Origin: Promethearchaeota archaeon
Lineage (GTDB): Archaea > Asgardarchaeota > Thorarchaeia > Thorarchaeales > Thorarchaeaceae
Length of the DNA: 64,000 nucleotides
Direction of reading: 5' to 3'
NCBI GenBank assembly: GCA_014728035.1
Contig: WJMJ01000062.1
Span: forward strand, 1-64,000
Both the position numbers and the translations under genes were made by a program. The notes under the pieces were generated by a model that was not told where the DNA came from, searched no databases, and saw only the letters and a list, made by a program, of their open reading frames with translations. Each line of letters starts with the position of its first letter. Position 1 is the first letter of the stretch. Below, one piece after another: positions 1 through 46,244 of this stretch.

Positions 1-146
1 CCACCCGTGATAACGAGAAGGGCAAGCATAAAGGCCCACTCCTTCCTTCGTATCACCGAGTGTGGAACCGTCTTGACATACACTATCACCAGTACCAGTA
101 CAAAGCCGAACACTAGTACAGATATCAGAGTCCACAGGTCGAACAT
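1..146 (-). CDS. Integral membrane protein, N-terminal part (runs off the window); candidate partner/immunity gene of the giant protein
   Basis: Not in the ORF track. ATG at 146-144 lies 1 nt after the TAA of the giant ORF. Manual translation is MFDLWTLISVLVFGFVLVLVIVYVKTVPHSVIRRKEWAFMLALLVITG..., i.e. TM helix, basic loop, start of a second TM helix; open to position 1. Confidence 0.75.
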   Translation of the reverse strand, partial: MFDLWTLISVLVFGFVLVLVIVYVKTVPHSVIRRKEWAFMLALLVITG

Positions 147-147
147 C

Positions 148-3100
148 TTATCCACTCCATCGTGCCTGCATGACAGGAATTCGCATGGCCACCATTGAGA
201 GCTGAAGTCCTGTTAAAACTATCTGCAATCCAATTCGTGTTTCTCGGGCTAAGTAATTAAGGCTGATGCCTTTTCCGATATACGAATTCATTCGGCCGAC
301 ACTTCTGAGGGCCGCAGAAGTTATAATGCTCATGGACATGACACCAGTAAAACCATATGCTCCACCTATCGGTCTCTGAGCTGGATCTACAGCCATCATG
401 GAATCAAAGGCCATCTCAAAGACTACTTCACCAACTAGGTCAGAGTACTTCACAAGCCCATCAACCAAGCTCGACAGTAGATTGACTCCCAAATAATGAA
501 TCCTTTGAGTAGCACTTCGCTGTAGTACACGAGAGGTTGTATCGGTCCAAGACAGCAAACGATTCCTAACTCTCTGACCAAGATTCATGTATGACTTGGT
601 ATTCATATCAAATGTGTGGATATTACGTCCAATACTACGTATTTTTGACACAACGCCAGTTAGTCCCATACTGATCAGATCAGCTAGGAGTTCCTGTAGA
701 AACAGATTCCAACCACGGTTGCTTGTTATCTGCCACAATGAGAAATTGCCCATAGTGCTATCAGAGAATACAGGACCATCACCAAACGTGTCTGTGTAGG
801 TATTGATGATATCCATTCCACCTAGTAATAGGTGATCAAACATGGACCTTCCTGTAGTCGCACTGATTATCAATTCTGAACCCCAAAGTGCAGTTATCCC
901 AGCAGTCACAGGAGCGAAACTCACCATGGTTGCTCCAAGAGTAATCATGGCTTTTCTCACCTCAACACTATCTGCTTCTTGTTGTTTCAAAATATCCAGA
1001 TATCGACCTATGTAATCATGGTCGTATTCCATCCGTAATGCATAGGAATCATAATACAGGAGATTTCTAGCAATATCTACCAAAGAGGTCACATTATCGG
1101 GATTCTTTCTACATACCATGACATCCATTTGGGGAACTGTGTTCACCAGCTCCGCATTGGAATTCCAAATTGGTGTCCCATTATTCATCCAATTAGAATG
1201 GTACTTTGTGATGTCGATGGTGATAGTAGTGTTTGTAGGAGTTAGAACAAAGGTCTCATTGTAGAGCTGTCCAAAGAGTGCGAAACGTAGTTTCATAAAG
1301 AATTCATCAGGTGTATCAGGACCCCACTCGAAATTGAATGTGACCTGTTTTCCTCTGACTACCTGATGTCTTGCGTATTGACTCTCCCCAGTCCACCAAT
1401 GAAGACCTGGCACATCAAGAATGTCCTTTGGTGTTTCGTCATCACCCCAAGATGAGGTCTCGTAGATAGTTGGACGTACTTGCAAGGTTTCATTCTGCAC
1501 ATTGAGAGATTGGACAAGGGGTTGTCGTTCTTCACCAACTTCTGTATAATTATACTGGCCATCACTAAACCAATCAGCCCCATCAATATCCAATACCCAA
1601 TTCTCTTCAATGTAGGAAGAAAGTTCGCCATCTCCACAACGAGGATGAATCATAGAGTCAATATCCACTACAGGACCATATCCAAGACTATTTGCAAAAT
1701 AATTGCTTCCTGCAACACCCATGTACAACGGCCCACCAACAATTGTAGCTAGAGATCCTCTTAGTGCTTGACCGTGAAGTTCATCAGCCCATCCTTCAGT
1801 ATTCCAGACATCGATTCTATCCTCAACACTGTAATCAAGAGATACCTCAGACACGCACTCATCAAGTAGTGAGTGTCCCCACATGTTCATGTGGTTGTAT
1901 CGCGATATAGTGTCAAGATAGGTCTGGCATAGAGTCGCATTTCTCCAGATGTGGTCCTGCGATATAACAGAGGATAGACCAAAACTAAGAACCCCTAGTC
2001 CTTGTCGATCAGCCTGAAATGTAATTGGGCTTGCAAAGCTAGATGGAGGGCCTTCGTTTATCGTTGCATAGTCCAGATATTTTCGATCTGCTTGTTTCAA
2101 ATAAGATGTGTCAATCGACCAGATTGGCCTATACTCTCTATCGATATCTCCTAGTATCATCTGACCTGTTGATGTTGGTGCAGAGCCAGCAGAACTATGA
2201 TGTACTGTTGATGTGATTCCGGGTATCCAGAAAGAGAAACCATCATCATGATCCAAATCTATGAGATATTGTCCATTTACGTTAAGCACTTGCCAATAGA
2301 ACTTTGTAGCACAGTGACTAGACACATCGTAATCTGGAGTTGGATTGAATGATAGCCGATAGTTCCATGGGTTGATACCATCAGAAGACTTGAAGTCAAC
2401 ACGACTTAGAAGCGGATTGGTCGGTGATGTCATATGAAGATTGGTAGAGTCTGAAGCTTCTAAGGTAGGCGATGAGATGGGAATATTGTTACTTCCATCC
2501 CAACCTAGAATAGAAGCTGAGATATGATCATTCCAGACATCCTCCGAAGACTCAACATAATAATCGAACTCCTGTTGATGGTGTGGTAGAACTACACGTT
2601 CCATCGAAATATCTTGAAGAAGGCCACCATCAGGAGTTGGAAGAAGCATTGGAAATTCGACCCCTTGATGAGTTCGGACTGAAAATTCTTTGATAATGCT
2701 GATCCTCGATATAGAGAACATTTTGTTGTTATAATGGAAATCAGTAGAGCCAACCACATAATCTCGTTCACATACTGCGACGTTTATAGTCACATCAGTG
2801 ATGAAGAAATCATATAGCATATCAAACCTACTAAGATCTATCTCAAATAGGACAGTCTTAGGGTCTCCAGTGTCAATGAGTGGAGAATGGATATACCATG
2901 TATAAGGTTCTACATCATTGATGAGCCTTGTTGAATTTGCACGAGTTGTATTGTAGACATAATATCCACCCATAGTTAGATAGATGCCTCCATAATGATT
3001 CTCAACCTCACCAGTGTAAGCTGGGTCAAAGGGTGGACATTCATCAGGGAATCTGCCTTCCACCCGAATCTTTGTGCTTCCAGGAGGAACAACAAACTTG

Positions 3101-6100
3101 TAGGCATCATCCGATGACTTATACGTATCCGTATTGTTATCAGCTGGGTCAGTAGAAACGGTCCACCACTCATATTCTAAACCTTGTTCATAATTATTAG
3201 TATCAACCGAACTCACAGTTACACTATGATACCTATCAGTGTGAGAGGGTAGGTCTATGTCATATGTGTAGGAATCAGCCCAGTACTCTGGATTCGAATA
3301 GCTTTGTGAAAACATTCCCTTGTATGGTATGTCCTTGGGTGTGAATTCCACTGTGGCATTGTCAGCATGATACCACGCACTGTCCATGTCAAGGTCTAGC
3401 ACTCGTTCTGGACCATCAGGCCATATGGAGGCACTACCGTCCTTGTGAGTAGTGTAGTAGAAGGGAGCCCAGCCATCCGTTGTCATATATCCACTTGCTT
3501 CTAGGAAGCGTTCTGCAAGACTACCATCATACTCTCCCTGAAAGATTGTATCAGGAACAGCATCACAGCTGAATATCACCGAGCCAGCGGTCTCCATCAA
3601 GGGTGTAAAGGCACGACCATCACTGAAATAGCCCATCGATGCCACATCTCGAATCATATACTGCATGAGGTCAGTAGCATCCAATGTGACTTTCATGCCA
3701 CCAATAGCATCCGTCTTCATCAGGATGTTGGTCTTGTCGAGCATTGCAGAGGGAGCTTCGTATAGACTGACAGAGCCACCCTCACGAATTCGCTCATAGT
3801 GGTCATAGTCATAATATACAGCCGTGTAACGTCCATGAGTTGGTAGATAGGTATTACAGTTCTCCACTGGTGAACCATCTTCATGCGTGAACTTGAACTT
3901 GAACCAGTTCTCTGATGCTCCACCATCCTGATAGAGGCGGAGATAGATCGTGTGAATTCCAGTACGAAGATAGGTCGATATTGTTGTCCCGGCCTCAGGC
4001 GTCATATCTATACCGTCTATCCAGACCTCAACATTGGTCATGGATGAGACTGTGAGGGAGAAGGTATACCAATCTGTCTGTGGGACCTCAAGCACAGTGA
4101 AATAGTGCTGGTACCACTTCTGACCCAGAGCCTCGGCATACTCACGAGGATAGCCACTGAGGTAGTTCGCATATGTAGGAGTCTCCTCATCATAATGCAT
4201 GGCTCGATACCATCCATTCATAAACTCAAGCTGAGCTTCTGGTCGGTCATAGACTGTGAGGAGTTCAGGGTCGATGTCCATCACGGACCAGCTGAAGCCC
4301 TGATTCCTACAGGTCTCGATGGAGAACTGGGTTGCTCCAATCTCAAGGTCCCATCCACTAACGGAGACCATCTCATTCAGGTCATAGTGACTAAAGTCTT
4401 CTCGATAGATCAGCATAGTGTAGTTGTTTGCCCATATCTGTAGGTCATCTAAGAAGTAGCTGATATTTCCTGAGTTGCCACCAAGACTCTCGACGATGGC
4501 AATTTGGGTGATTCCGCCTAAACCATGGGGAGAAGAGAATTCTTCATGATATACCACAGATGAAGGTTCACCAGTGATATCCATCTGGCGATACCGCACC
4601 TCGTCACTAGCAAAATCAAGGTCCCAATGCACCCATTGGTTATGAGCTACGCTTGTGGTCCACTCAGAGAGAATGGTAATAGGCTCAGTTGCGCCACCAT
4701 CTAGATCCCAGACATACTTACGAACACTGAAACGATACTGGTCACCATAGGCACGCGGGCTGTCAGTAACCCATAGATCTAACTCGCTATCATAGTGCCA
4801 ATCCCATGTTATCCATGTTTCGAAGCTGCCAAATAGTCCAACCGCTTCATCTGTAGTATATTCATGGATGACCTCAAGAATCTGAGATGTTCCACTACTA
4901 AGGACAGTTGTCTCTTGTCCAACAGGATCACTGACGGGTTGGGGGAGATAATCATTCCACCATAGCGGAGCTGAATCATCAACCCCATTTTCAAAGTCCA
5001 ACCATGTGTAGAACTGAATCGAACAATTGGGATTGTCGAGATTGACGGTCTTTTTGAGTCGAGACAAGTCAAAGTTATTATCGTAGATAAAGAGAGAGCC
5101 ATCCATCAGGTCTCGTGGGCTAGCAATCCAACTGGTAATGAAGCCATCTTCATCAATACCATCCGTATCTCCAGAGGGAGCTAGTCGTGACCCTTTGCGG
5201 TCTACAGTCTGATACATTGTAACGGGAACTATTGAATCAGGTGATGTCATGTAAACATCATAAACTCCGGTTGTTACATTAAACTGATACAGGTCAGGTA
5301 ACTCGCCCTCTGTGACATTCAGATGGAGAAACAGACTGACAATATCCAAGGATATAACAGTCTTGACGGTCTGATTCAGATAGATCGTATCTTGTGTGGA
5401 ATTGCCAGCTAACGAGGAAACTGTGATGGAATAGGGAGAAACTGTGTCATTTGCCCAGTAGTAGGAAACAGTGATATTGCTATCACCACTGGCAGGATCT
5501 ACCATCAATCGAAGGTCTCTCTGCTCATATATATCAAGACTGGTTGAGCCATCAACGTCAATTCCCTTCAAAGATTGTTTATGAGTAAGATACCCTGCAA
5601 AACAGGAGGAATTAGCTGAACTAGAGAAGACACTATCTTGTAGTAGGACATCACCATAGACTATCAGACCGTTATATGAGGTGAAACGGGAGATAGCCAA
5701 ACCAGAACTATCAAAATATAATTCTGAACTATTCATATATTCATAATTCGTTGAGTCGGATTCTCGTGTTACTTTCCAAAGATAATCATCTTGTGCAATA
5801 TCAAGTGTGTTGGTCAGATAGACATCATCAAGAGTCGCTCCAATGATAGCAGGTGAGAGGGAATTGTCATACATGATGAAGCTGATCTCTGTAATAGTTC
5901 GATTAGATATATCCCGGTCAAGGTTCTCCAGAGAGATGAACAGTTCATTGACTCCGTGATGAAGATCCTCTTGTAGTTCAAAGATCTCATCTCCATCTGA
6001 GGAGATTGCATAAGCCACGGACCCATTATCCAATACCATGCGAATTCTATACTCGTGTACAGCTTCAATAGTATATCCTGTATCCACATAGGGTTTGACC

Positions 6101-9100
6101 GATAGATGAAGATATGAGAAATCAGTCGCATTCAGAGTGGCATTGTCTACTAGAATAACAGATACATAGACTTTATTCTTATGAGTGAGAGCTCGTACAG
6201 AGTGTTTACCTTCTGTCAATGGTGCTAGGGGATAGGTAGATGCGGATGTTATTATATCACTCTCGCGCTCTACGGAATTCAGATACAATACAGGTGCCTG
6301 ATTGATGGCAGCCCATAATCGCACACTCTCCATAGTGAGCTCGTCAGCATAGACGGTTGTCCAATTGATAAGGCCAGTTTCGGTAATGGTATACGTTCTG
6401 TTGATAGACCGACCCTCGACCCAACCACACATCATAAATTCGATTCTATGTCTGGTCTGGTCCAGGATGATCACCTCATCCAGAAGAACTTGAGTGGTGT
6501 TCTCACCTATCTCGAATTCAATGGCATCTGTAGCAACATGTAGATTCAGGTCATATTCTGTGGTCCAGACCTCAAGATTCGAGTGTGGATGATAGTGGAC
6601 GGTCTCGGGAATACCGTTGATTAATGAACTGAACTTCGTATATACAGGCCCCTGGTCATAATACTCTGTGATACTAGCAAACATACTAAGAACTCCTGTT
6701 GTGGTCACATCAGTCGAGTTCTCACGAGTGGTCTGCAGGGTATTGACATCAAGGGACTGGAGGTTAAACAGGGTTAGACCAGAATATTTGCTTGTACCAA
6801 GTAGTTCAACATAGTCTGACCCAACATCAATCCTGCTCATTGGCCTATTGATAAGGGCAAATTCGGATATGGATAACCTTTGTCCTGGTGCATCCTGATA
6901 TATCCCAATTGACGTGATGACTTGAAGATGGCCAGCAATCGCGCTAATATTAAGGACAATTCTATCCCAAGTAGGCCAAGATAATTGGTGAGATACTGTC
7001 TGAGATACGGATTCATTTGTGAGTCCTTTGATGTTCAGCCAAGTAGCACCAGAGGACACAGATAGATCTCCATTAATGACCAGTTCACTCATAGAACTTA
7101 TTGGAAAGTCAAGATTGAGATATGACACATTGGTACACGAATTTGAGGTGGCAGAATATCCATATTTCGTAATTTCCAGCTCGGTCTGACCATCAACTTT
7201 TGGTAGGAGATACCCATTGCTACTGATACCACCAAAACCAAGAGTCATATGTTGAATGTGTATAGAGCCTGCTGCAACCCGAATGAACAGTCTGGTCAAT
7301 GTATCAAATCTTGAAACGATATTGCTTAGAGCAATTGTATAGACTCTCCAATCAGATATCCCAGACGAAACCGAAGCATGAAGCATGTTTCGCGTGATAT
7401 TCATTCCTTCATGTTCGAACATGACTTGTATCGAACTACTGTTCAACTGAATTGGTGAGTCGTATCGCCAGCGAATGATGAACCATTGGTCAGTTACAGA
7501 TAGGTCCGCAAAGTTCCATTCTATTTCAAGACTAGCGGTGTAATCTGCTGTATCAAATACACCGTAGGATATCCAGTCATCACAAGATAGAGTGCAGTCA
7601 AGTGGTCCTACGGTTGCCTCTGAACTCCATGTCCAATCAAATGAATACACCTCAGACTCTGCTTCTAAGGTATCGTTCGTTCTATCGTTGTCTCCATCTC
7701 TGGCATATACTTTCCAAAGAACAGAACCTGCTACTGACTCATGGTTATAGATGATGCAGGTCCAACTAGCACCATCTTGTGTTCCTGCTCTACTGGTCCA
7801 TTGACCGCCAATCTCAAACCAGAAGACCACTTCAGATAGAGGAGAATAGTCAGAGATAGTTATACTCAACAGAACATCACCGGATTCTGTACCTGTAATA
7901 GGACTCGGACTTGAAAAATCAGGAGATGCGGAATCATCATCAGATATGGTACCACCTATGAACTCTGATAACAGCAAAGTTGAATCTCCACTTCTATCAC
8001 TGTCAGCATCAACAGTCCTGACCCTCCAGATCAGTGTTGAGCCAGTCGCCTCATGCCAGACTGATGGAGCAATGGAGAAGCCATAAGTGCAGCTAGTGTT
8101 GGTATAATATGATTCATACGAAGACCAACTTTCCCCATTATCCAGAGAATAAGCAAACTCCACAGAAGACAGACCACTACTATCAGTCACATACACAGCG
8201 AGTTCATAATCACTGTTCCAACCATCATTTTGCGAACCACTATCAGATGGAGATTGGACCAATGGAACATCTGAATCATCATCTAATACTACAACAATGA
8301 GGGGATTCACCTCACTACCCTGTTGTGATGTTAGAGTATCACCAGTTCTGTCGACATCTCCGTCGGTGACAACAATAAAGTAGTCAAGGGTCTGTCCAAC
8401 ATCATAAGATAGTTCAACAGTCCATATTCCGTTTCCGTTGCCACCAGGCCCATTCATTTGATAGGAGATAGGTGAACCTGTAACATCGTATAATGTTATG
8501 GAGGATATGCCACTAGAATCAGCAACATCGACAGATATGGTCAGTATACCATTATCCCATTGTGAACTGGCATCATAGACTGTTCCTGACGTATAATAAC
8601 TGATAGCAGGTGCTGACGTGTCATCATCTGAAACCGAACCACCAATCTGTTCACTACTTGTCTGTGTGAGAGAGTCACCTGTTCTATCAGCATCACTATC
8701 GGTTGCTCGGACCTTCCACATAATACTACTATCAAGAGCAGATAACCATGTGGTCCTATCAATAGTGTAGGAATAGGTATTGCCATTTATGGAGGAGTAA
8801 CTAGTCCAAGAGCTCCATGTAGTACCGTCATCTAGGGAATATATAAACTCAACAGAGGATATTCCACTAGCATCAGTCACATCCACCCATAAGAGATAAC
8901 CATCAGATTTTGAATCGAGAATATTTCCATCATCACCAAGATTAGAGAGAGTAGGAACGGTTGTATCATCATCCGTTATCTGGCCACCAGTATAGTCAGA
9001 GCTTGTTGTCGTGAGGGAATCACTTGAACGATCTATATCGTTATCTGTCGTTCTGACTCTCCAGTAGATGGTGGAGTCAAGAGCGGTAAGCCAATCAGTT

Positions 9101-12100
9101 CGAGAGATGTAGTAGTGATAGGTGTCCGAACTGTTGGAATCGTAGGAATCCCAGGAGGTCCATGTTATTCCAGAGTCGAGAGAGTAGACGAACTCCACTG
9201 AGCTAATACCACTACTATCGGATATTGAGATCCAGATATGATATGAATCCAGTTTTGCGTCGGTCACCGAACCATCATCACCAGCACCTGAGAGAACAGG
9301 AGCTGAAGAATCATCATCTGTGACAGTTCCACCCGTTTGGGCAGTACTAGTCGTTTCTTCACTCTCAGTATCGATAGCCTTGAACCGATATTTGATAATG
9401 GAATCCAGCGCAGATAGCCATCCCCAAGTACCAGTTCTAGGTATCTCGTAAGAGAACAGATCCCCGGATTGAGAACTTGTTATGTCAAGCCATCCATTTG
9501 AAGAACTATACCATGTTGTTCCGCCATCAAGAGAATAGTCTGTGTAGACTGTATCAAGATTACTATCCGCATCGGTCACTTGGGCTTGTATGGTGTAGGT
9601 ATCGCTCTTTTCATCGAGTACTGAACCGTCACTTGAAAATGAATCAATGACCGGAGCCTCATTAGACGAATAGATCTGGTCGGTTGTGATCTGGATATCG
9701 TTCGTGTAACAGTGAAAGCCTTGATTATAGTTGTACTTTCGAGCCCATCCAATTGCGATATAGGTTGCAATACGGGATTTCGCGGTTGCAGAGGGAGAGG
9801 AAACAAGAGTAGAACTGCCCTTATTTTCAATGGATGCAATGATTGCATCTTGAGTTGAGTCGTAATAAATCTCGAAATCACCAAGATAGTTACCATAAGC
9901 CGCATCTTGATATTGCTCAGATCCTCCACCTTCCGCATCGGAGTAACAGTAATAGACATTCAGCATTCTATAGGACGAATACCAAGGGTCATGAACATTC
10001 AGCATGAACATAATCTCCTTATTTTCATCAAGGATAGCCACCTTCATCATTATTCCTGCACTATCTTGAATTCGTTCAAGCTCAGCTGTGAAACAAAGCC
10101 CTCCATCGAGTGTACTCTGAGTACTTAGCTCTCTCATCCACATTGGTCCGTGAGAATACTGAGAAGATGAAGGAATTGAACCACATGCATAACGACCATT
10201 ATTGATAGAGAGGGTAGAACTTTGAAGCTCACCCCAAAAGGTATCTCCATCCCAATTTGAGCTAGTGAGTAAGGTCCAACCGGATGTGGAGGTGCAAGCG
10301 TCAGAGTAGATTGAATATGTGGCACTCCGGGTCATCATGACCAGAGCTTCTAACGGATTAGCATCAGCACCATCAAGAATACCATCCGAGTCTGTATCGC
10401 TGTCTTGTGGGTCAGTATCAGCATTATACTCTCCGAGATTATCCAACCCATCTTTATCAGGGTCCTCCTTGTTATCCCTAGTTAAAGGATCAAGGGAGTT
10501 GTGATATTCCCAAGCATCGGGCATTTTGTCTTTATCTGAATCATCGCTTACTGGATTGGTTCTCAACGTGTAATACTCAAATCCATCAGTCAATAAGTCA
10601 AAGTCAGTGTCGTTATTCTTAGGGTCAGTTCCTATTTTTATTTCCAAATCATCCAAGAGACCGTCGTTATCAGAATCTATTCCTTCAGTACTGTATCGAG
10701 GTAAATCTAATGAAAGTGCTTGGTAACAGGGGGATACAGTATTCTGACTTTCAAAGGGAGAATCAGAAACTAATATGGGTTCTGAAAATACAATAGTACG
10801 AGTATCAGGAGCTGGATCACTAGGTATTGAACCATAAATAGAAACTTTCTCAATATTGAGCCAGAGTTCCTTTCCAATTGCACTGTCAGACCAATTGATA
10901 GAGAACCCAATAGCAGATATATTAGATGTTGAGAATTCATTCAATATATCTTGTAGAAATAGTGCCTTCTTTGTTGGTTCCGAGTTCTGTGGCAGTTTAG
11001 TAGAAAATTTTAGGCCATCCAGCAGGAAGAATACTTCAAGCCAGCAGTCCGCCTCAACACTTGACCGATATTCTACAACCATCGAGTTGATTCTTGTGAT
11101 GTTATAGGATAGCGGATGTTGGGCACCAAAGGAGCCTATACTTGCATGGGTCCAAGCTGTTAGGGATATGGTTTCAGAGGGGGCAAGTGTGTTGATATAT
11201 TGCTCATTATCATTTCCTATTCTTGTCCAAGACCCACTGACCTGTGATAAAGACACGCTATAGAATGTCAGATTATAAGCTTGACTTGGACTGTCTGTAA
11301 ATTCAATTCGATAGAATTTCTTCCCTGCAAGGGCATCAATAACAGATAGGTCAATATCTAATCGATGAGTAGTACCGTCAGCAATGAAGCCATAGTCAAT
11401 CCAGTCAGCATATACTATGACTCCATCCTCTCCATAAGCTGGATCTGAATTTACATTTATTCCTACAACTCGGAGTGACGGGCTATCATCACAATCGGTC
11501 ATTGAGTAGACAATACTTAGTGTGTTATAGGTCTCAAGTGGAACGGGTTCAGGAAGTCTATAGATAGCACTCCACGAAGGTGTTGTTGATATAATAGAGG
11601 TGTATCCGTTTTCAGCCTCGGTAACGTCTCCACTCCATCCAGCTGTTGTGTCCTGAACGACAGTTGCTCCTTCAGTTGGAGATATCTCAAGATGGTCAAC
11701 GGCCACATATCCACCGATATTGGAAACACCTACGAGTAGTTGTTTCACGTTTATAAAAGCATACTTGGAAAGGTCAATTGTGTACCATCCAGAATTAGAG
11801 GTTTCGAAAACATCAAGGACTGTATCGTTCTTCAAGACGAACGACAACCAGTAAGATGTAGCCCCATTATAAGAAACATCAAGTATCAGACAGCTATCAG
11901 GGAGAATGTAAAGATCTACATCTCTGGAGAAATTAGCTTTATTCTCACTGGCTACGAACTTCCCAGTATCGAAAATACTTTCTACACCACTTTGTTCAAT
12001 ATATCCAGAATCTATCGCATGCCATTCTGACACATCACCAAAACTCTCATGGAATTCATAATCGGTCTGGGAGATGTAGAGCAATTCTGGGTCTTTGACA

Positions 12101-15100
12101 ATAAGTAGGTCATCAACCCATAGAGTAAATGGAGCATTTCCAGAGTATGATATGAAGATAGATACTTTTGATACCCAATCAACACCATGATCAGCAGAGA
12201 GATTGGCCCAAATCAGACCTGTCTTGTCACAGTCATCATCGTAGCTTTTGGTATAAGTATCGAAAGTGTATCCACCATTAGCCTGTTGATAGTAGACTCT
12301 GACTCCGACAAAAATACACTCAGAACTCTTGATATGATAAGGCATATGAAGAATAGGATACTTGGCGGTATCAATGGAAACGTCCAATGATATCTCAGTT
12401 TCACCAGAGATAGAAGTGCCATCCACAATCAGACAGCCGGAATTTATTCCCAAATCAATCTCAGGTTCTGCAGTCCATCCGTCAATACTCAGAAAGTTTT
12501 CAGAAAGATAGGGGAAATGTACTCTTTGTGGATCAATACGTTGGTAGTCATTTTCGAAGACTACAGCTCGTTCGCGAAGCCCAAACCAATCAAGACGAAT
12601 CTTTGAGCCTGAAGTGGTCTTTTCTGCACCAATTCGAATCCTTTGAATATATGTTCCAGTAATTGAAAATGTCTGAACATATCTTCCAGATTTGTTGAAT
12701 CTGAAGAACTCTGTGGAGGTATCTGATGTGACAAGGACATAGGCATCACATTTGACAAGCTCCACGACATCCATCAAGAGATATTTGACCATAGCTGAAG
12801 GGATAGAGAGGCAGTCATACTCCACCCACATCTCACTTCTGTTTTCGAGAGGCATAAGTGTAAGCACGTCACCATCTGATCCGTAGACCGCATAGACAGA
12901 ATCGATTGAGTAAGGACGACTGAAATCAGTTGCAAAGTATTTATCTTCCACGTGTTCTTCTACTGGATCAATATCAAAGGTGGAAGTGTAACTTGGAACT
13001 GTGGTCGATTCCATATCTTCAAGAGAGAGTAGGGGCACATGGGTTCCATCTATCCTGTATTCACGAAGATGCTTCTGTACATCATACTCGAATGCAATCA
13101 TAACTTCATTTTGGTATAATGAACTATCAGAGAGTCTTCTGACTTCACGGTTAAAATTGATAAACCCAGATTCTAGTACCTCATAGAAATCAGTGATAAT
13201 AGCAAAAGTACTGAAGGCCTGCTGAATAACGAGTGTGCTATCATCCTGTTGTACGATTTCGAGTGAGATGGTCTCATACCATGATTTGTCAAGTGTGCAA
13301 TATTCTGTTCCGTTGAACTCCACTCGGTAATATGGAGTTGCTTCATGTAGAACATCTGCCATCGAGCTGACTGAGAATCCAAGAACTTCTGTATTCCATG
13401 AAAGAGACAAATCCCAATAGGGTAGGTAGACAGATTGAGTTTCAACAGAGAATAATTCACAACTGTCAATCCGAGTATAATCATCAGCATAGATATAGAT
13501 TGATGTCAGAATAGGATTTCTTTTCAAGCCTTGGCGAACAAGTAGTTTCTCAGCAAGTAAAGATATGTCAATCTCACATCGCAACCAGTCTGCGAATAAA
13601 GGAACATAACTTGCGCTTGAAGTAGAAATATTATACACATCTTCTTCAATGGCGATGGAAAATATGACTGTGGGGGTTGCATTTGCAACGAAGCTTAGTT
13701 TTAACCCATCACTGACCATTTGATATACAGGAATGGGCATCATAAGACAATCAGGACCAACTAGAGCTGCACGAGTTCCATGAAAGGCATTGTTGGTCCA
13801 ATTATACCCACTACCAGTATCAAAGTCATTCAATAGTGTGTGTGAGTTACTATTTCGTGGTGATAGCGAAATAATGTCTCCAGTTCTCGCCTTGAAAGCG
13901 GTCACCAGCTCGACCAGTTGATCATAGGCAATCTCTCCATCACCCGCAAGATCAGCAATATGTAATTCTAGTTCGAAAATCTTGTCAATATCTCCACTCG
14001 GTAATGCATACATCTTAGTTGCGAGAAAAGGTAGATCAATAGTCAACTCTTGTATGGATAATGGGTACCAATTGGTTTCCACCCACATAGTAGATCCATC
14101 AGCTGCAGAATGTAACAGAGCTCGATACTGAAGTAGAAGACCTGACGAATTAGAATCGAATGTGCTAACTAGGATGGGAACTCCCCGAATGTCTATCTCG
14201 GTGCTGTTTGTGAATGTCACATAGTCATTTGAAGTATCATCGTGATTATTCATAGCAAATTCGAAACTGCAGATAATATCAGGGGTATCTGGGTATATGA
14301 CTTGCATGTTAGCCATTCCAGTAACATTCCAATCCGAGGAGAAAATAGGAAGATAGGGAGTATGTGCCTCGCTTGTTAGAGCAAGAAGGCCACATGATTG
14401 TCCATATGATATAGCAGATGCGTCATGCAACTTGAAAGTCACAGGAACATTATGTGCAGAATTTGCTCGAACAAACACGACGAATGCATTTATCCCTTGG
14501 CTAAGAATTACAGGGATATCTGCATTAGTAGTAATGTTAGCTATCATATCTCCTCCATGATAGATCTCCATGAAAGTAATATCACCAGTCGATATATTGA
14601 GATAATGAAGCCCCTCTTGAGCATAGAACTCGCTATACGCAGCATAGTCCATTGTAACCCGTTCACCTTTGTCTTCTAAGAGGAAATGCGGACTGATATC
14701 TCCATGAGTGGAAACCGACCATTCATGCATCTTGACCTTGGTTCTTGAGAGTGCAATAGCATCTAGTTTCAAATGTGTGTTGTAAAGCATGTAACTATAG
14801 TTCTTGATTGCAATACGAACTCCAGTAAGAGAAAACTCAGGAAGGTCTATCTCATACCGAGTCCAGTCTGCTACTTGATAGAATCGAAATTCTCGCTTGG
14901 TTGTAAATCCTTCAGAGTGAGTTAGCTGAATCTCTATATCTGTGAATCCAGTGATATTTCTTTTTGCATAAAAGACGAGACCGGAAACGAGCTGCGAAGT
15001 GCCATAGTTGTATTCGATCCATCCAGGGGTGCCATCACCACCACACAGCACAACTGAATGAGAACTTCTGTATCCCTCCAATGAAAAGGCTGTTATGGAA

Positions 15101-18100
15101 TGATTCCATGCACCATATGAATAGTATGGATTGGTATCAGATTCGAAATCACCATCTATTGCATCCATGTCATCATAGGAATACGTTCCAAAATAGTCCA
15201 ACATGGATAGAATTCCAGTCATGGAGGCATCCTTGAGCTTCACTAGCCCCTTCACAGGACTTGGTGCTAACACATTCCAGTGGAGCAATCCACTGGTATC
15301 ATTGAGTTCAGCTTTCATATTATGAATCTGAAGACCCCATAATGCATCACTATCACCAGTTTCAACTCGCATCATCAGAATGTGTACAGATGGAGAGAGA
15401 ACAACTTGTGACCTTGAAGGAATTTCAGTACCATCCAACCAGAGAGTCACATTAGCAACTCCGCCGTTACAAATGGGAACAAATGAATATATTCCCTCAG
15501 CATCTACCGTGAACAAGCTTCTGAAGGTTCCAACTTTACTCGCATCATGAATGATATTCAAGAGGGAGAGATACGGCTCTACTGAATCGGGATAGGATTC
15601 CCATACCACAGTATGATAGAATATTGGAGTCTGTATATCGTTTCCAGCGTTATCGGTACAATAGAATGAGTATGAAAATACTGTGTTTTCCGGTAGAGCT
15701 GGAAGTGTCGATACCCATGTTGCTGTTTCAGAGTTGTAGGTCATTGTTAGGTTTCGAGCTTCTCCTTCAATGCTAAGCAGTGCCGTAACAGACTGTACTC
15801 CAGAAGAGGTGAATGGTTCAACAAATTTTGCTACAAGTGTACCGTTGAGATCAGGTTGTGCATCCATGACTCGTGTATACACAAGTTCTGGAGGTATTAA
15901 GTCACTAACAGAGGTCACGGTCCGTATTGAAGTACTATCTTCATTACCTGCATAGTCTGAGAAAATCGCGTAATATTGTATGGACGAACCGTAGAAGAGA
16001 GGAAGGTGAGCTACAAATAGCACATACGTCACACCATTTTCAATGTACTGGTTAAGCACACCCATTCTAACCGTCATCCATCCCAATCCGTAGGTATAAT
16101 TAAGATAAGCTTGTTCAGGAAGAGAAGCATCAGAGGATTCACATAGAACCAGTTGTACAGTAGACGATTCGTTGTACAGTTCATCTCCAACGGGACCATC
16201 AAAGGAATGAACCTGTGGAGAAGTTAGATCTTCTATGCAAGCTGATACTGTAGCGGTTTGAGTAGACATTCTATCCTCGGGATTCGAGAAGTCATAATCA
16301 TTATCAGTTACAGTAACATATGCACACAAAGGATATCCATATACGATGACGGATGCATCTATCGAGAACATGTACCGCCAGGATGTTGCATTGTATGAGT
16401 CATCGAGGACCATTGTGTCCGAATGAATACCTGTTTCATGCCAGTAGTAGACCGTTATTTCTAATACACCACTACAATCAGTAACATTAGCATATATGGT
16501 TGCATCTTCATCGCAGGTAGATGCTGAGATCCACACTTTGACTTCTGGACGGAGCACATCATCATCGTGTCCAGATATAATAGTCTCAATCGAGTCCCAA
16601 AGCCAATCAGATGTTACTGTTCCATCATTATCTCTGGTATAGACAGTAATAGTGTATTCACCTATTAGATTCGGAATTGCAACTTGGAATACTTGAGCAT
16701 CTCCCGCAGAGCCATCAACAAGAACATCATCAGTGTAGTTTACACCGTCAAGCTCAACTATAACCTCACCAATACCACTCTCTTCATCAATTGCAGTCAC
16801 ATAGAGATACGATTGCCCTCCATCCATGACAGCACTATCGTCAATGTCAGTTATAGTCGGGGCTAAGAGGTCATCGTCACTAATAGTATAGCATGTTGAA
16901 GCACCAGAAGCACTCTGGTCAATAATTCCTCTATCACGGTCCAAATCGTAGATTGAGAACTCGACTACGATAGTTCTCCCTTCATCAGCATCATCAAAGT
17001 TATCCGAGTATATTTGGAAGAAGAATGATACTATGGTGGATGTGTTGTCAGGCCCCGTCCAGATATCAACAGGGTGAGCATAGGACTCGTTTATAAATCT
17101 CCAAGATGCAGATGATAGGTTTAGGTCAATTTTGTTCTCATCAGATGCAGTAATATAGCCAGAAATTGTTCCGTCGGAGGGGATAGTCGCATCACCTGGG
17201 ACATCTAAAGTGGGACCATCTGTATTATCGTCATAGACAACTACATCCCACTCGGAATGAGTAGTACTTTCACAACTCGGAGTGTCATTATCATATGCAG
17301 TGATTGTGTAATCGAAGGCTTCCGTAACAGTAGGGTCATCAATGTAATGAAGTGGTAAATCGACCCAGTAGTGGCCTGAGCCCCCATTATGCATAATAAG
17401 AGTGTCATTAAGCCCAGAGATGACATACTCGTAGTGTAGTGACACATTAGCAATACCGGATTGTGAATCGTTCACAGTACAACTCACCCGAATCTGCCCT
17501 TGATTGTAGAGCCCACCTGGTTTGACATATGGACTGCTGTCCGTTGGGTCTGGGTCGCCAACTGGCCACACATCAAAAACCTGTGGATCTGTTGTGTCAG
17601 TGTCTTCGAGATAGAATGACCAATATGCACCATCATTATCCCAGGTATGGCCACCGTATTTGTCAGTAGTGAAGTAGAAGGAGATGGTGTTTTCTTCGTC
17701 AGCAACATCCAAGAACCCAGTAAAGGAATATGACGAATAATGATTGTACAATGAGTAATATGTACTACTTTGATTAGTAGCTTGAATGAAATCTCCTGAA
17801 CCAACACGATACCATAGTGACAAGTCATTCGAACTATACATATAATCAATCTCAATATGAACCTGTTCGGAATCAGCATATTGGGAAGTTGCAAAGTCTG
17901 GATTAGGACTTGAAGCACGTAATTTAGGAGCACGGATGTAGAAACCAATATAGTCGCAATAGACATGCCAACTATCAGAGGAATACCACTTCACACGATA
18001 GTATACAGTTTCGTCATCATCATATCCAGCACCTGCTTGACGAGGTGACGTGGTATATGAGTTTGAGATTGGTACCCACCCATACATGAATGATGGTTCT

Positions 18101-21100
18101 GTAGACTGGTCCCAAAGATATTCCATAATACCAAAACTACCTGAAGCGATTCCCGAAACATCTGCATGAAGACTATGGTATCCGTAAGTAGGAATATCAT
18201 CAGGATTTTCTTCAAGAATATTACCGTACGCATCAGTTCGTCTTGTCACAAGGGCAAGCTCAGTGTTTGATGCGGTGAATGTCACATTGTATTGAGTACC
18301 ATAGGTAACACCAGTGAAGGTGTATATGTTGCCATCAACAGTATAGGATAATGTTGGATACACACTAGAGAAAGTCCATGAACTATGTTTGGTCACCTTA
18401 AATTCCCCATCACTTGTTGATTGATGATCACCATAATCTTGTAACGCAAAATTATATGGAAGAACCCATGTAGTGATATCGCTAACAGGGTTGGATGAGA
18501 AGGACGCTGACACTGAGAGCGAACTTTGTCTATAATATGTCTTGACTTGGTCTATAGATAGTGAGATGACCGAAGTCTGTGCAGTGATCCATACGTCACT
18601 TGCTTCGGCATGACTAACGGTCTGACCATTCGCAGTCAATTGTTGTACATTGGAACCACCCGAGTCGGTCCAATGTACTTCAATCTGGTAGTTGAACATG
18701 GTTGAACCAGTGATTACAGTATCAACTCTGACTTTTACAAAAAAGTCATTAGTATCACTCCCTCCAGTACTCCAATATCGTTTACCTGTCGAACCAGAGT
18801 AGTCACCGTATTTCCAATACGGTTTTGAATACACGTAGTCATCACCCTGAATCGATGATTTTTCTTCCGGATCAGTAATGTAGAAGCTGCTACCTTGGAT
18901 AGATACCCAATACCACCCACTAGATAACGATGAAAATGTGAATGAGTACCACTCATGAGTAGAGGTCGAGGCATCAAAGGAACCGGAACGAAGAATCGAA
19001 TTATAGTTTGGTGCCGTTTCAGTCCCACCATATATGAACCAGTGTATGTTATTACCCACAAAACCCGTCTGTTCTTCAGCTTTTACATATACCTGTACTT
19101 CAGATACAGATGAACCAGATGCAATATTGAATGATTGTGCATAACAATTTCCAGAATTCCAGCCGCAATCTTCATCCTGTGGAGTACCAGATGGATCATG
19201 AAGATTTTCAATCACACGATTGGTAATAGAAGACAGATCCCAATAGGTATAGTCATATTCGATAGCATTATGTATGCTGAGATGTTCACCATTGGTGAAC
19301 GTGTCTGACGCCTGATAGCTTGCCCATCGATCTATTGAATGAGAGCCAATTGTTCCGGTATAAGGCTGGTCAATAGCATTGTTCAATCCCGTCATAGGAG
19401 GATAAGACATGAGAGTCATGATTCCATCCCATGAGTTCCAAGAGCCATCTGAATGGGAATCCCACTCAAATCTTGAGAGGAATGGTTCAATTATTCTGAG
19501 CCAATCGATTTGGCCCTCACCCTCAACCTCGCCAGCCTGAACTAGGATCTCTAACTCTGCAACATCCTCAAGGAATTCTACATCAGCAGTCACGATTGCC
19601 CAGATAATTGATTCTTCATCAAAAGAGTACGAAGTAGCGGTGGAATTGATAGCTGAGATGTTCATTTGTGAAGAGTAGCCAACTCGTTCTCTAAACTGGA
19701 ATACACTATAGATTGTTGTATCTATCTTCGGATCCTGAACGTGCTGCAGTTTTGTTTCCTTGAACGAATCACAAGTGATGGTAAGAATGCCTTGCTGGCT
19801 TTGGGCAACAGAAGCTATCGTAGAATTGTTCGTGTGAACATATTCCCAATTTCTGATTCTGTAGATATGAAGTTCGTCAAGAAGGATTGACTTGTTCAAC
19901 AAGACTGAGGACTGGGTTTCCTTAATGAGAAGTTCAATCGATGTGATGGACCAGTCGTGACGATTGGTAGATAGTAGTTGCTCGTAGATATTTCTGTTTT
20001 CCTCAACAGATTCTGAAGGGGTCATTGATAGAATATCAAGGGTCTCAGTTGTCAGTCCATCAGTCATCTCAAATCGTAGAGTCAGATGTAGATCTCCAAC
20101 ACCAGAGAGCTTGAAACGCATGAAGGGATACTCCTCAGGAACTGCATCGAGATGTTCTAGTCTAAGAATCACGTATTCCATAGATGATTGGTCAGTACAG
20201 TTCAGAGTGACGTTCATCTGCCCAGAATCGTAGGACAGTATGGTCTTTGAATATGCGTCAGAGGATGACTCTTCGGTGTCAATTATCCACCAACTGGTTG
20301 TCGAGAAGTCCTGAAATACAGCATATTCTTCTGCAAAAGTCCCATCATGAAATGCTGTGCTGACCTCCTCAATAGTACCAGTCCATCCATCTAACAGCCC
20401 TGATGGATGAATATCATGTGAGGAAACCACAAAGTTAGGATCGATTTCGATTCCGGATATCAACTCAAATCGTTCCTCAAGCAAGGGCAGGAGAACAAGG
20501 GACTGATCTGTATCTACACTGACTGAACTGGCGGGAAGAGTGGCAGTTACATACTGTCCATCAAGACCCATAAGACCAAATCCCAATCCAGATGAGTAGA
20601 TAGCTGCGAATTGCGGGTTCGAGATGATAGGTTCAGTGACGGATTGATTCAGAACACCAAAGGAATCGCTGTATCTGGTTGCCTGTTCTGACAGAATAAA
20701 GCGAATATCCATATCGGACTGTGTAGATACATCAATCGCTCCATTGAACCAGAAGGAGACCTCAACCGATTCTTTTGTTTCAACAAGTTCTTGGGACACA
20801 ACGACATAGCTCTGCGTCCAGTCAAGAATAGTGGTCTCAGCTCTGGTGAAGATATGTGTGTCATTCTCAAGAGCAATCTGACCAATAGACCATTCCATCA
20901 AGGAATCACCGAGTATGATGTTTGTAGATCCAATATCTGTGTCATACCGAAGTGTTACCTCAAGTCGCTCATTGAGTGCTTGGTCCGATGGAGAGAAAGC
21001 AATACAATCTACAGAGAGAGAACGGGCTTGTCCGTCAGTACCAAGGACAAATCCATATCCCAAGACAGTACTACCAAGAGAGGAAATGTCATAGACGGTG

Positions 21101-24100
21101 CTAACGTTGGTAAGACTGATGGTATGGTTACCAGAATCGGTAGTAAGAATGAGGTCGCAAAATGTTAGATTAAAGGTGGAATCCACATGAAGGAACGGTG
21201 AGGCTGATATATCAATCTCCAAGCTGTCAGGATAGTACACGGTCATGGTGCTATCAACCTGATAGACCAATGAGTCTTCACTCAATGTTGAGATGGATTC
21301 ATACTTTCTATCAAGTAGAGGGGTATCCATAGTGAGAGCCATGTCAGAGCCATCATGCATATTTATCCATGAAATAGACCAATTCAGAAATTCGGCACCA
21401 TCAATACTGAATTCGATAGAGCTGATATATCGTGGATAGGTCTGTATTCGCTGAATATTCTGTATAGTATCGGGGGTGATAGAGAAGGTTTCTGAGACAC
21501 CAGTCCGATTCATTCCGGACCATATTGTCAAAGACAGAGAGTCTACAGTTGAGTGATTGACTGTGCAAGCAATGTCTATCACAGACAGATGTTGTGTAGA
21601 ATCAAGATTTAGCCAGACATTGCTAGTGCCTTCACCAGGATGAAGGATATTGAGAGCGCCTGTATCAGTCGTTCCACCTTCTACCTCAAGGCCAAAGAAG
21701 TCAGGAATAGAATACTGACTCTCCGCCTCAATTGCAGGAGTATTACAGGTTCGTAGCCAGTCCAGACTGAGATAGGGCATGTTTCCAGACACAGAACAGT
21801 TGAATGTAAGATCTGTAAAAATGCCTTCAAAGTCCAAGAAGGTAAGACTGTCTGTGAGAAGTCCAATATACTCATCGTCACCATACACATAAACAGCACA
21901 ATCAACAAAGATTGAAGATATTCCAAGTATATGCATCTGTGAGGAGGAGATGTAGGTGTCCTCGATAGTCACTGAGAACCAATCAATGCTATTATTACCA
22001 ACAATCTCCAGTCTTCCGTCATTCCATTGCTCATCACCATTGATAACCGTAATCTGACTTGTATTTGTAAACGAGTTTGCATAAGCTCCATCCGATTGAA
22101 AATCATCATTCGGTTGAACAGACCGAGGTAATAGTGTTGAAGGCTCAATACTGCCAAACTCAGCTGCTAAGCCCATAAAGCCTGAGTCTGTATATGGATC
22201 AGTCTCAAGTAGAGAGGCGGGAGATAACAGATTATCCCAGTCCCAGCGTATACCTGTCAGGACATATCCTAGTTTTTCAATCCCTTCTGTGAGATAAGTC
22301 TCATCATCCATTGGGAACATATCAAGCATGGTAAGAAGTCCTGCTCCAACACGTACGGTACATTCTCCGAATTGACCAGATGAGTCCTTACTGTAGATAT
22401 TCTGAGGGTTGACTCTTGATAGATCAACCGCGTAAAGATTTGAGATCTGTGAATAGCCACCATTCTCGATCAGGGTGAAAGAGTCCAAGGAGAGAGCAGG
22501 AGCTAATTCTATCATGTCGTAACCCGATACTGCAAAGACACCAGCACCGAATCGTGGAATGCCATTCATATACGAGAGCAGGTCGTTGTAGATATTGGGT
22601 CGATATCGCGATTCCTCAGAGAGTAGCGAGTCGGAAGCATAGACTATCATTGAACCAGTCATCATATTCTCAGCTGAATCTCTCAAGGTTACTTGATGAT
22701 ACCCAATGGAGTAAGGCTCATAGCCAGTCAGGAAACAAAGATAGTGGTCATAGGACTCGGTTCTGTTTGTAACTGAGCCAAGAGAAATGAGGGTGAGTCG
22801 AAAGTCGTTCTCGTTGATAGATGCGGTTCTTGTGCCCTTTTCTATCTCATGTGCCAATGCGGTCATAGACACTCTGTCAAATATTACTTCATCATCAACT
22901 AGAATATCAAAGGTGTTGTTGAGGGTAATATAATCAGAGGGTATAGCGAGAGAGAAGGAGTACGAGTAAGATGCTTCTTTTGGAATATAGCTAGTCATTG
23001 CTACTTCATTTCCAGACCCATCAAGCACAAGCTCTGTTCCATTATAGTAGATCTGTTCTTTCATGTCATCAAATCGTACTATACTAGTATCAATCTGTGA
23101 TTGTAAAACGAGCTGAGAACTCAAGCTTCTCCCATGTGCGGAAGTACCAGACAGGTATAGGTATTCCTCTGAAGAGTACAGTTTTCCTTGAACAGAAACA
23201 TAGTCAAATGGAATCACTCCAGACGAAACAATCTGATTACCATCAGCTATCCAAGAATGAATATACGAGTCACCAGTACCATCTAGTTCCAATAGTTGAT
23301 ATGGAATACTATCGGAGAGAATCACCAGAATGCCGGGGATATGATTTTGAACTAAGAAAATCAATTGTTCATCATTTATTACCGCAATATTGGAATGACC
23401 ACTCATAATGAGGCTTGTGCAAATTCTTGCAGTATCCTCACCATACACATAGACTGGGATTGTATTGTACGAATCATCAGGAATTTGACTATAGACCTGA
23501 CTGTCGGATGTGACATAGTCTGCGATAGACACATGGGTTGTATTTGTGGTACTGTTGAATGTTACAGTAACTATCTCTGTCGAGGGTAGTTGTGATTCTG
23601 GGTGAAGAGCAAAGTAAGCTGAGAGATAGTTTTTAGCCTCGCCTAGAATGGTCTCATGAGATTGGTCTATAGCAGTCTCAAAATAGATTCCTGTCTTCTG
23701 GTATCCAATGCTATTCTCTTGTGAAGCGTCATGGATCCCAAAGATCAATCGGGTGTCATCTAGCGAGTCGCCTGAAACAGATGAATCACCATCATACACA
23801 AATGCTTGCGAATCAGAAAATGCTGAATAGCTCAGTCCAAAACCGGTGGTGATATCCTGAGAGGGGATTCTTATGCTGAATGAATCTCCAGCAGAGAGGG
23901 AAATGGACCTATCAAATTCAAACAAGAACACTCCTTCAGTATCAACAGTTTCTTTGGATTCGTAGCGATGTCCATTGTGGACCAGCTCTATAGAGACTTC
24001 CTGGGAAGTAATATCCACATCACTAAGAGAGAGATAGATACCAGACGCCTGTATATCTTCCTTTACCTGTGCTTGTTGTTCGATCGCTCCAGCTATGGAG

Positions 24101-41776: not shown

Positions 41777-41779
41777 TTC

Positions 41780-45698: not shown

Positions 45699-45776
45699 TG
45701 GCGGGACCGTCCGGATTCGAACCGGAGATACCCAACTCCGCAGGCTGGTGCCTTATCCAGGCTAGACTACGGCCCC
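45699..45776 (-). tRNA. tRNA-Arg(GCG), intronless, CCA encoded
   Basis: GGGGCCG/CGGTCCC acceptor, CCAGC-CTGCGGA-GTTGG anticodon arm, TTCGAAT T-loop; TATAAG box about 25 nt upstream. Confidence 0.97.
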
Positions 45777-45832
45777 ATTTCCTGCGAGTTCAAATCAACT
45801 TATAGACTCTTCGCTGTGGAATAGATGTTACA

Positions 45833-46051
45833 CTATTTCGATTGAACAAGTTCAACCGATGCGCGACCATTCAATTTGGTTATTCGTAGAACATGCTCTG
45901 ATGTTTGAAGAACAAAACTCTCACCATCTTCTAAGTTCTCTAAAACTGGTCGTCCAAGCGGTCCATTCAAATATCTCTCGAAACGAGACACAACGCTATG
46001 CCGCGGAACGGTTTCTTCGATTACGCTCAACTTCAATGACCTCATGGTCAT
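45833..46051 (-). CDS. Small hypothetical protein between the two tRNA-Arg genes
   Basis: 72-aa ORF with globular composition that fills the inter-tRNA gap on the same strand. Confidence 0.65.
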   Translation of the reverse strand: MTMRSLKLSVIEETVPRHSVVSRFERYLNGPLGRPVLENLEDGESFVLQTSEHVLRITKLNGRASVELVQSK

Positions 46052-46166
46052 AGCGATACCTATGACCTACTATTGAGTCGGTTTGAGATTATTTAAGGTC
46101 CACATAGTTTCAGATTTGAAACGCCATTAATTTTCATAGTGTGAGAGAGTATATCTCAAATATCAG

Positions 46167-46244
46167 TGGCGGGACCGCCCGGATTCGAACCGGGGATACC
46201 CAACTCCGGAGGCTGGTGCCTTATCCATGCTAGACTACGGCCCC
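46167..46244 (-). tRNA. tRNA-Arg(CCG), intronless, CCA encoded
   Basis: Same scaffold as the GCG tRNA with anticodon loop CTCCGGA; TTTAAA box about 25 nt upstream. Confidence 0.97.

Follow-up and report, generated by a model that had tools for sequence, protein, structure and literature searches.

The first 64,000 nucleotides (nt) of contig WJMJ01000062.1 (forward strand; hereafter the window) from a Promethearchaeota archaeon of the family Thorarchaeaceae (assembly GCA_014728035.1) carry a gene for a giant surface protein of 9,975 amino acids (aa), and the C-terminal tail of this protein is the subject of the present analysis. We consider it probable (roughly 60%) that residues ~9686-9975 form an integral-membrane anchor of three hairpins in the cell's own membrane, which would give the giant a tether at each end. 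The tail belongs to a conserved domain family without a match among described families, and in the giant's own subfamily every locus that could be assessed has a partner gene whose product has a predicted Toastrack fold, although the partner often occurs without the tail. The strongest argument for membrane anchoring is a sister subfamily (B), whose sequences read as an ordinary polytopic membrane domain. Insertion into the membrane, the precise topology (chiefly whether helices H2 and H3 are embedded) and the contact with the partner are inferred from the observations presented below.

The giant protein and its composition switch

The giant, from a Thorarchaeota metagenome-assembled genome, is an acidic surface protein that is anchored in the membrane and bears 108 N-x-S/T sequons, and a Pfam search with both halves of the protein returned 0 families above cut-off. 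Its strongest hydrophobic helices are located at residues 9-29 and 405-447 (Table 1), in agreement with an earlier reading of the DNA (the sequence-only reading), which had held the protein to be anchored near its N-terminus. The body has a median net charge of -26 per 300 aa, and windows with a net charge of at least 0 are confined to the last 300 aa and to the Lys/Arg-rich residues 532-1522. At about residue 9686 this acidic body changes to a near-neutral, all-helical tail. The last 300 aa have a net charge of +1, and their content of Met (18 per 300 aa, versus a protein median of 5) and of Gly, Ala and Met together (65 per 300 aa, versus a median of 39) are the maxima of the whole protein. 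These extremes bear out the switch from acidic modules to Gly-Ala-Met helices that had been described from the sequence, although the helices had been called amphipathic as well as hydrophobic, and the former term suits only two of the five segments picked at that time (residues 9709-9732, 9796-9812, 9861-9875, 9904-9923 and 9948-9964). Two of these segments have hydrophobic moments of 0.30-0.34, while the other three are uniformly hydrophobic (0.05-0.16).

The description of the segments as moderately hydrophobic is accurate, with Kyte-Doolittle (KD) 19-mer peaks of ~1.5 in the tail versus 2.0-2.4 in the N-terminal membrane helices, and Hessa-type summed dG values of 3.7-5.4 kcal/mol versus -1.3 to 2.2 kcal/mol. 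In a TopPred-type GES profile, the highest values of the tail are 1.85 in the segment HP1 and 1.80 in helix H4, with a further peak of 1.0, compared with a maximum of 1.35 in the ~9,200-aa body and 1.99-2.16 in the N-terminal helices. Membrane grade, which here denotes hydrophobicity profiles only, is reached across homologs by HP1 in all 17 sequences that cover it (1.33-2.19), by H4 in 16 of 17 (1.0-2.19) and by H5 in 17 of 17. Since the two highest tail peaks top all body peaks and the same three segments recur in essentially all homologs, this hydrophobic signal exceeds chance. The tail gives the N-terminally anchored giant a second membrane-grade end, as proposed in the sequence-only reading, and its form, a conserved multi-helix module, agrees with the proposal that it is more than one stop-transfer anchor.

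Table 1. Features of the giant gene, its C-terminal tail and the adjoining reading frame (positions in the window; TopPred-type values unless stated otherwise)
Feature	Residues	Positions	Strand	Remarks
Cut downstream gene		1..146	-	stop, 1 nt, ATG; 48 codons to contig end
Giant open reading frame (ORF)	1-9975	148..30075	-	9,975 aa plus stop; 29.9-kb gene
N-terminal signal or anchor helix	9-29	29989..30051	-	peak 1.99; KD 2.14
N-proximal transmembrane hairpin	405-447	28735..28863	-	peaks 2.16, 2.02; summed dG -1.3, 2.2
Conserved C-terminal domain region	9615-9975	151..1233	-	361 aa; short beta segment, then helical module
Polar first half of first long helix	9686-9708	952..1020	-	predicted helix 72-105 (domain numbering)
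HP1	9709-9741	853..951	-	33-aa charge-free helix-turn-helix; near-invariant Trp-Gly pair
Loop 1	9742-9789	709..852	-	best-conserved stretch; net charge -2.7; invariant Asp
H2	9790-9809	649..708	-	amphipathic in giant; conserved Glu/Asp pair
Loop 2	9810-9864	484..648	-	variable Arg-rich linker; 10 K/R versus 2 D/E; block pLDDT 44-66
H3	9865-9894	394..483	-	long helix; conserved acidic stripe i, i+4, i+8
Loop 3	9895-9904	364..393	-	conserved Arg-Pro-x-Gly-Gly turn
H4	9905-9923	307..363	-	charge-free, small-residue-rich; hydrophobic moment 0.05
Loop 4	9924-9947	235..306	-	basic helical tip of H4-H5 hairpin; 5 K/R versus 1 D/E
H5	9948-9964	184..234	-	last hydrophobic helix; 1.0 in giant, 0.97-2.03 in homologs
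Tail end	9965-9975	151..183	-	conserved Pro-Val kink motif closes protein (alignment)

Architecture of the tail

Three segments, HP1 (33 aa), H4 (19 aa) and H5 (17 aa), are essentially charge-free across 19 homologs, with 0.1-0.6 K/R per sequence (0.1 in HP1), and the family net charges of loops 1 to 4 alternate (-2.7, +4.7, about 0 and +1.1). The polar half-helix that precedes HP1 has a family mean of 3.5 K/R and 4.0 D/E and is read as extracellular. HP1 itself is proposed to be a membrane hairpin or a re-entrant knob. Its turn is marked by indels and abundant Gly/Pro in the alignment and by a break of the helix predicted by AlphaFold2 (AF2), which argues for a hairpin over one span. Loop 1 is read as extracellular, and its N-F-S sequon (nt 739-747), present in most homologs, is the sole sequon in the helical part of the giant; sequon density is ~2 per 100 aa upstream of the helices and ~0.3 per 100 aa within the helical part. 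Loops 2 and 4 are read as cytoplasmic and loop 3 as extracellular. Further landmarks of the alignment are the near-invariant Trp-Gly, the invariant Asp within a Phe-Asp-His motif, a Thr-Ser-Asp motif, the acidic stripe on one helix, the Arg-Pro-x-Gly-Gly turn and the terminal Pro-Val kink.

The AF2 model of the tail, built from a 48-row alignment, has a mean predicted local distance difference test score (pLDDT) of 79.5, a predicted template modelling score of 0.65 and 143 residues with pLDDT of at least 90. It is all-helical with long hairpins, whose tips are basic in H2-H3 and H4-H5 and hydrophobic in the first hairpin. The predicted helices around the H4-H5 hairpin span residues 291-318 and 323-350 (domain numbering).

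The sister subfamily B

Subfamily B (alignment A5) shares homology with the giant's tail across 265 columns, up to and including H4 (hhalign probability 99.8%, E 2.5e-28), and is represented by four loci, which we denote by our own genome and contig handles (G060:C66, G030:C27, G042:C111 and G071:C56). Its sequences contain 5-6 membrane-grade segments scoring 1.05-2.2. HP1 is present as two full-length arms, and the equivalents of H2 and H3 are uncharged; for instance, the H2 equivalent as aligned by hhalign is of membrane grade (1.36-1.88), and the H3 equivalent is a membrane helix without charge. Loop 3 has a counterpart with 0 K/R and 1 D/E, and loop 4 one with 6-11 K/R versus 1-5 D/E. In order, the loops of subfamily B are acidic, acidic, basic, acidic and basic, and this order fits a polytopic domain with both termini outside. 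Compared with this pattern, H2 and H3 of the giant's own subfamily appear to have acquired acidic residues.

A different partner follows subfamily B. At 4/4 loci the 3' neighbor encodes a conserved protein of ~290 aa that lacks both signal and membrane helix, matches no Pfam family and is apparently soluble and cytoplasmic. A Thr-Asp-Arg-Arg motif in this protein recalls bacterial PH-like domains.

Distribution and fold of the tail family

An exhaustive HMMER search with the last 361 aa against 1.84 billion representative proteins recovered 49 homologs, 9 of them below E 1e-30, and all matches were C-terminal. Six-frame searches of the order's 87 genomes gave matches in 18, including positions 151-1233 of the window in the giant's own genome, and four loci with tail relatives belong to Candidatus Thorarchaeota. 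The gene family is patchy, and the other genome of the same genus is without the gene. Long homologs align collinearly with the giant over as many as ~2,400 residues before the tail, with 31-37% identity in both body and tail, and among the order's genomes the module that precedes the tail is followed by the tail domain in every copy whose contig continues. This collinear body, together with a preceding module that always leads into the tail, shows that the tail is the fixed end of one giant family and not a swappable tip. Accordingly, the hallmark of polymorphic toxins such as Rhs or CdiA, unrelated C-termini on a conserved body, is not seen here. Proteins of 5,486-17,457 aa searched with the tail region gave no match, the recorded relatives being fragments or shorter forms. 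Contig G074:C25 has an ortholog about as large as the giant, a 9,749-codon open frame that ends at the contig edge; the small contig G074:C26 contains the tail of this ortholog in frameshifted pieces, adjoining a partner gene.

Searches for a described family were negative throughout. The last 700 aa and five homologs had no Pfam family at E <= 0.1 apart from unrelated sub-threshold matches, neither the tail nor its homologs matched NCBIfam, and a sequence profile search of the Protein Data Bank (PDB) with the tail returned only matches with E >= 0.3. A match of one homolog to the SseC translocator (E 0.073) lies far below the cut-off and was treated as noise. With the tail model as query, Foldseek found nothing below E 1e-3 in the PDB, and VIA, run exhaustively against 48,161 chains, yielded generic helical hairpins only, over the last 80 residues and with Z of at most 7.7. 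ESCRT-III, flagellin and YaxB appear in the latter list at Z ~7, a value generic for helices, and align with the last helical hairpin only. In the ESM Atlas, a search by shape gave TM scores of at most 0.22 by query, and a search by features gave a best value of 0.89 with low recognition, under the 0.9 mark; the cluster names found there (Rhs, pre-toxin and type VI secretion system lipase) are weak leads below that mark. It should be noted that empty fold searches with a helical model do not prove a new fold, and that membership in an unlisted family stays possible. An analogy with 5:2 motor stators (MotA/ExbB with a single-pass partner) was also considered and set aside, since the partner helix is without a conserved acidic residue and no such fold was listed.

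The Toastrack partner gene

At 11/11 assessable loci of tail relatives, the next gene on the same strand, ~10-45 nt further on, belongs to one family of ~245 aa, intact in most loci and decayed or frameshifted in three. The structural model of the partner (pLDDT 84.4) consists of one N-terminal helix and a beta domain, and the latter superimposes on 4qrk_A with Z 20.6 over 199/212 residues (root-mean-square deviation 2.7; Foldseek E 4.6e-10). Six more chains from structural genomics, deposited mostly as putative adhesin and otherwise as pectinase or lipid-binding protein, align at Z 8.3-9.8. PMC11237479 names both 4QRK and 4OPW as Toastrack exemplars, and on this structural comparison the partner is predicted to have the Toastrack fold (DUF4097/DUF2154/DUF2807). 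Members of the partner family had no match in Pfam. A paralog on contig C126 of the giant's genome, which aligns with the partner family, matches LiaF-like_C at a sub-threshold E of 1.5e-5. The Toastrack domain of the partner probably faces outward, because the helix is preceded by a short basic N-terminus and the sequons are conserved.

The partner family has 12 matches in the word-indexed database, and a profile that includes the paralog from the giant's genome identifies single-pass Toastrack genes in 80/87 genomes. Many close paralogs are intact with no tail domain nearby and interleave with the tail-adjacent copies in the tree, a pattern which suggests that the partner has a function independent of the tail domain. 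Several are arranged in tandem. For example, positions 8773-10292 of contig C126 in the giant's genome carry a tandem pair of single-pass Toastrack genes and then a 1,134-aa ORF, and arrays of two or three close paralogs are found in G074:C13, G023:C96, G072:C11 and G074:C24. No tail-bearing gene lies upstream of the G023:C96 array, and the other three arrays run to the contig end. At G073:C44:10000-20335, a close Toastrack paralog lies directly 3' of two ~970-aa FtsX/MacB-like permease genes.

In the window itself, only 147 nt remain 3' of the giant gene, and the cut ORF in this space (Table 1) is probably the Toastrack partner, although 48 residues are too few to assign it. They include two hydrophobic stretches with a basic loop between them, and an internal GTG start would yield the basic N-terminus followed by a transmembrane segment that is typical of the family. 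A search of the giant's assembly for the remainder of this gene, with one protein and a profile hidden Markov model (HMM), found only the two C126 paralogs. Complex prediction for a tail and its Toastrack partner (G084 locus, each with an alignment) scored 0.00, a result to which we attach no weight in either direction.

Truncated copies

Relatives of the giant gene also persist as 3' remnants in which the last 235-930 codons remain in open frame (G037:C57, G073:C4, G028:C20, G084:C139 and G016:C78). Each adjoins a partner gene, frameshifted in G016 and intact in the other four, and each lies on a long contig among housekeeping genes. The truncated forms are without a signal sequence, and the G052 copy of the tail gene has stop codons inside. 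In our reading, these copies remain from deletions of an accessory gene with a high cost. On both sides of the remnant region in G084 lies a gene of unknown family (L029:3226-4050 and 11401-11757), and this repeated gene may be the mark of a mobile element.

Topology and alternative explanations

In the topology that we favor, the ~9,200-aa acidic ectodomain would lead through the polar helix into the charge-free HP1, which would dip into or cross the membrane and return outside, where the conserved, acidic loop 1 with its recurrent sequon would stay. H2 would then run inward, the floppy Arg-rich loop 2 would lie in the cytoplasm and H3 would run outward to the Pro/Gly turn of loop 3; H4 would again lead inward to the basic helical tip and H5 outward, leaving the C-terminus outside. 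The N-terminal signal helix and the 405-447 hairpin would hold one end of the giant and this module the other. The co-transcribed single-pass protein would set its Toastrack beta-helix domain next to the tail module on the outer face, probably as a docking or scaffold partner of the tail.

Several observations weigh against this double tether. Within the giant's subfamily only three segments are of membrane grade, a grade that itself comes from profiles, and the Hessa-type values of the tail are marginal. The arms of HP1 have just ~11-15 residues, and the acidic residues of H2 (~2) and H3 (~4) would be costly within a membrane. As regards the partner, many close Toastrack paralogs stand apart from any tail domain, and the 48 residues of the cut downstream ORF have no significant match to the partner HMM.

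Some of these points would suit a soluble extracellular cap, in which the hydrophobic helices are buried in a closed bundle or oligomer and the far end of the giant docks on the membrane-anchored Toastrack protein. Helices of 28-39 residues exceed a membrane span, Kyte-Doolittle and Hessa-type hydrophobicity is marginal, H2 and H3 carry conserved acidic stripes, the best-conserved stretch is a polar loop and the partner has an anchor of its own. We nevertheless regard a soluble cap as unlikely, as only about four amphipathic helices would be available to shield its four charge-free arms, the segments remain without charge in every homolog and the basic loops are located exactly at the hairpin tips. 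Subfamily B also speaks against it, with its 5-6 clearly membrane-grade helices, positive-inside alternation and a partner that has neither signal nor membrane helix. That same partner, which looks cytoplasmic, would suit a single-pass anchor, in which HP1 crosses once and the remaining ~235 aa form a helical domain in the cytoplasm whose H4-H5 part rests on the inner leaflet; the hydrophobicity of the tail peaks most strongly at HP1, and sequons are nearly absent beyond it. A single crossing is quite improbable, however, given that the middle of HP1 is an indel- and Gly/Pro-rich turn with a helix break in the AF2 model and becomes two full arms in subfamily B. The flanking charges also run the wrong way, with basic residues before HP1 and an acidic flank after it, and the H4-H5 loop is basic between flanks that are not, which places loop 3 outside and implies an even number of crossings before it.

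The sequence-only reading had likened the tail to colicin-type pore-forming or toxin-translocation helices and had suggested bridging or insertion into another membrane. In such a scenario the tail would be a latent membrane-insertion or pore-forming end that enters the membrane of another cell, and the downstream protein would be its holder or immunity factor. The marginal hydrophobicity is of the kind that lets helices of pore-formers escape stop-transfer, the tail is C-terminal on a giant surface protein and tightly coupled to a small membrane-protein gene, truncated 3' remnants lie by intact partner genes, and other genomes have orphan and tandem partner genes. The leads to Rhs and pre-toxin clusters in the ESM Atlas, all under the 0.9 mark, point weakly the same way. 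The coupled gene, the remnants and the orphan or tandem partners also fit loss of the giant gene and a partner with its own function, and the decaying remnants (e.g., G052) fit ordinary gene loss. Neither sequence nor fold comparison links the tail to any pore-former or toxin: Pfam, NCBIfam and PDB sequences gave no match, and in the comparison of the predicted model with known folds, which had been proposed as a check, no pore-former stood out. Moreover, the domain is not polymorphic, being one family conserved collinearly on one body, and subfamily B, with its ordinary polytopic charge alternation, is too hydrophobic to escape the producer's membrane and has a soluble partner instead of a membrane protein. 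Toastrack is not known as an immunity fold for pore-forming toxins. We therefore consider a pore-forming end very improbable. More doubtful still is a version in which the tail is a conditional insertion device, checked by the Toastrack protein, that enters a neighboring syntrophic cell so that the giant bridges two cells; no result supports bridging or insertion into another membrane. The outcome named in advance as speaking against a toxin-like tail was a confident canonical polytopic topology with homology to ordinary anchors and no membrane activity; subfamily B comes close to this outcome, although no known anchor family was matched.

Comparison with known systems

C-terminal membrane anchors of archaeal surface proteins are known; the tail would be a new multi-helix variant with subfamily-specific partner genes. 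Archaeal surface glycoproteins are held at the C-terminus by a single helix or by a PGF-CTERM segment processed by the archaeosortase ArtA. As in these proteins, a hydrophobic C-terminus would hold a large glycosylated ectodomain at the membrane, but in place of one helix the giant has ~290 aa with three to six helices, forming a folded conserved domain with a partner gene, and it additionally has N-terminal membrane helices. The combination of sorting motif, one helix and basic tail that characterizes PGF-CTERM proteins is absent, NCBIfam gave no match, and the tail ends in the Pro-Val kink.

The closest parallels to the pairing of tail and partner are LiaI/LiaG/LiaF of Bacillus subtilis and PspC-Toastrack, in which a helical membrane module is likewise coupled to a protein with one helix and a Toastrack (PMC11237479). 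The Toastrack recurs beside multi-transmembrane modules, for example LiaI-LiaF-TM and PspC (PMC11237479), although the tail has no similarity to either that was detectable in Pfam or NCBIfam by HMMER-level search. The systems also differ in that the envelope-stress modules involve a small stress protein, whereas here the module terminates a surface protein of 9,975 aa and has no PspA, kinase or regulator beside it. Furthermore, Ravi et al. (2024; PMC11237479) argue that the Toastrack of envelope-stress systems is intracellular, whereas the partner described here, with its signal-anchor-like N-terminus and conserved sequons, appears to point outward.

The colicin pore-forming domain (PF01024) is a ten-helix bundle with one buried hydrophobic hairpin. 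The tail resembles it in its all-helical C-terminus, its moderately hydrophobic hairpin near the terminus and the small membrane-protein gene adjoining, but has no sequence match and no listed fold match to it, contains more hydrophobic elements than one buried hairpin and does not behave as a variable tip. Colicins are paired with a polytopic immunity protein, and the partner of the tail is a single-pass Toastrack protein. As for giants of Asgard archaea, the passages of Wu et al. (2022; PMC8813620, Extended Data Fig. 7) on tandem giants borne on aloposons mention no C-terminal module or partner.

The closest relatives of eukaryotes known to date are the Asgard archaea, and little has been learned so far about the construction and anchoring of their cell surface. 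In the arrangement proposed here, the far end of a giant would be held by a multi-helix membrane module and not by the usual single helix or lipid-type anchor, and two subfamilies would use distinct dedicated partners, an outward-facing Toastrack protein in one and a soluble, apparently cytoplasmic protein in the other. A double tether combined with a scaffold that also occurs in the envelope-stress systems of bacteria suggests a surface structure that bears load or relays signals. The tail family should be useful for annotation, though as a surprise it ranks below a new toxin or a cell-bridging device.

Other features of the window

The neighbors of the giant gene in the window are archaeal, and include an archaeosine tRNA-ribosyltransferase-type protein with DUF5591 and PUA domains and an RLI/ABCE1-type ATPase. 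At 30450-34401, a gene for a leucine-rich repeat protein diverges from the giant gene and is followed by a DUF11-type surface protein gene. The minus strand has two tRNA-Arg genes at 45699-46244, 390 nt apart, with the anticodons GCG and CCG. Finally, a protein with a phycobilisome-like N-terminal region and B12-binding domains is encoded at 40679-42979, immediately 5' of a histidine kinase gene, and the two form a possible cobalamin- or light-sensing pair.

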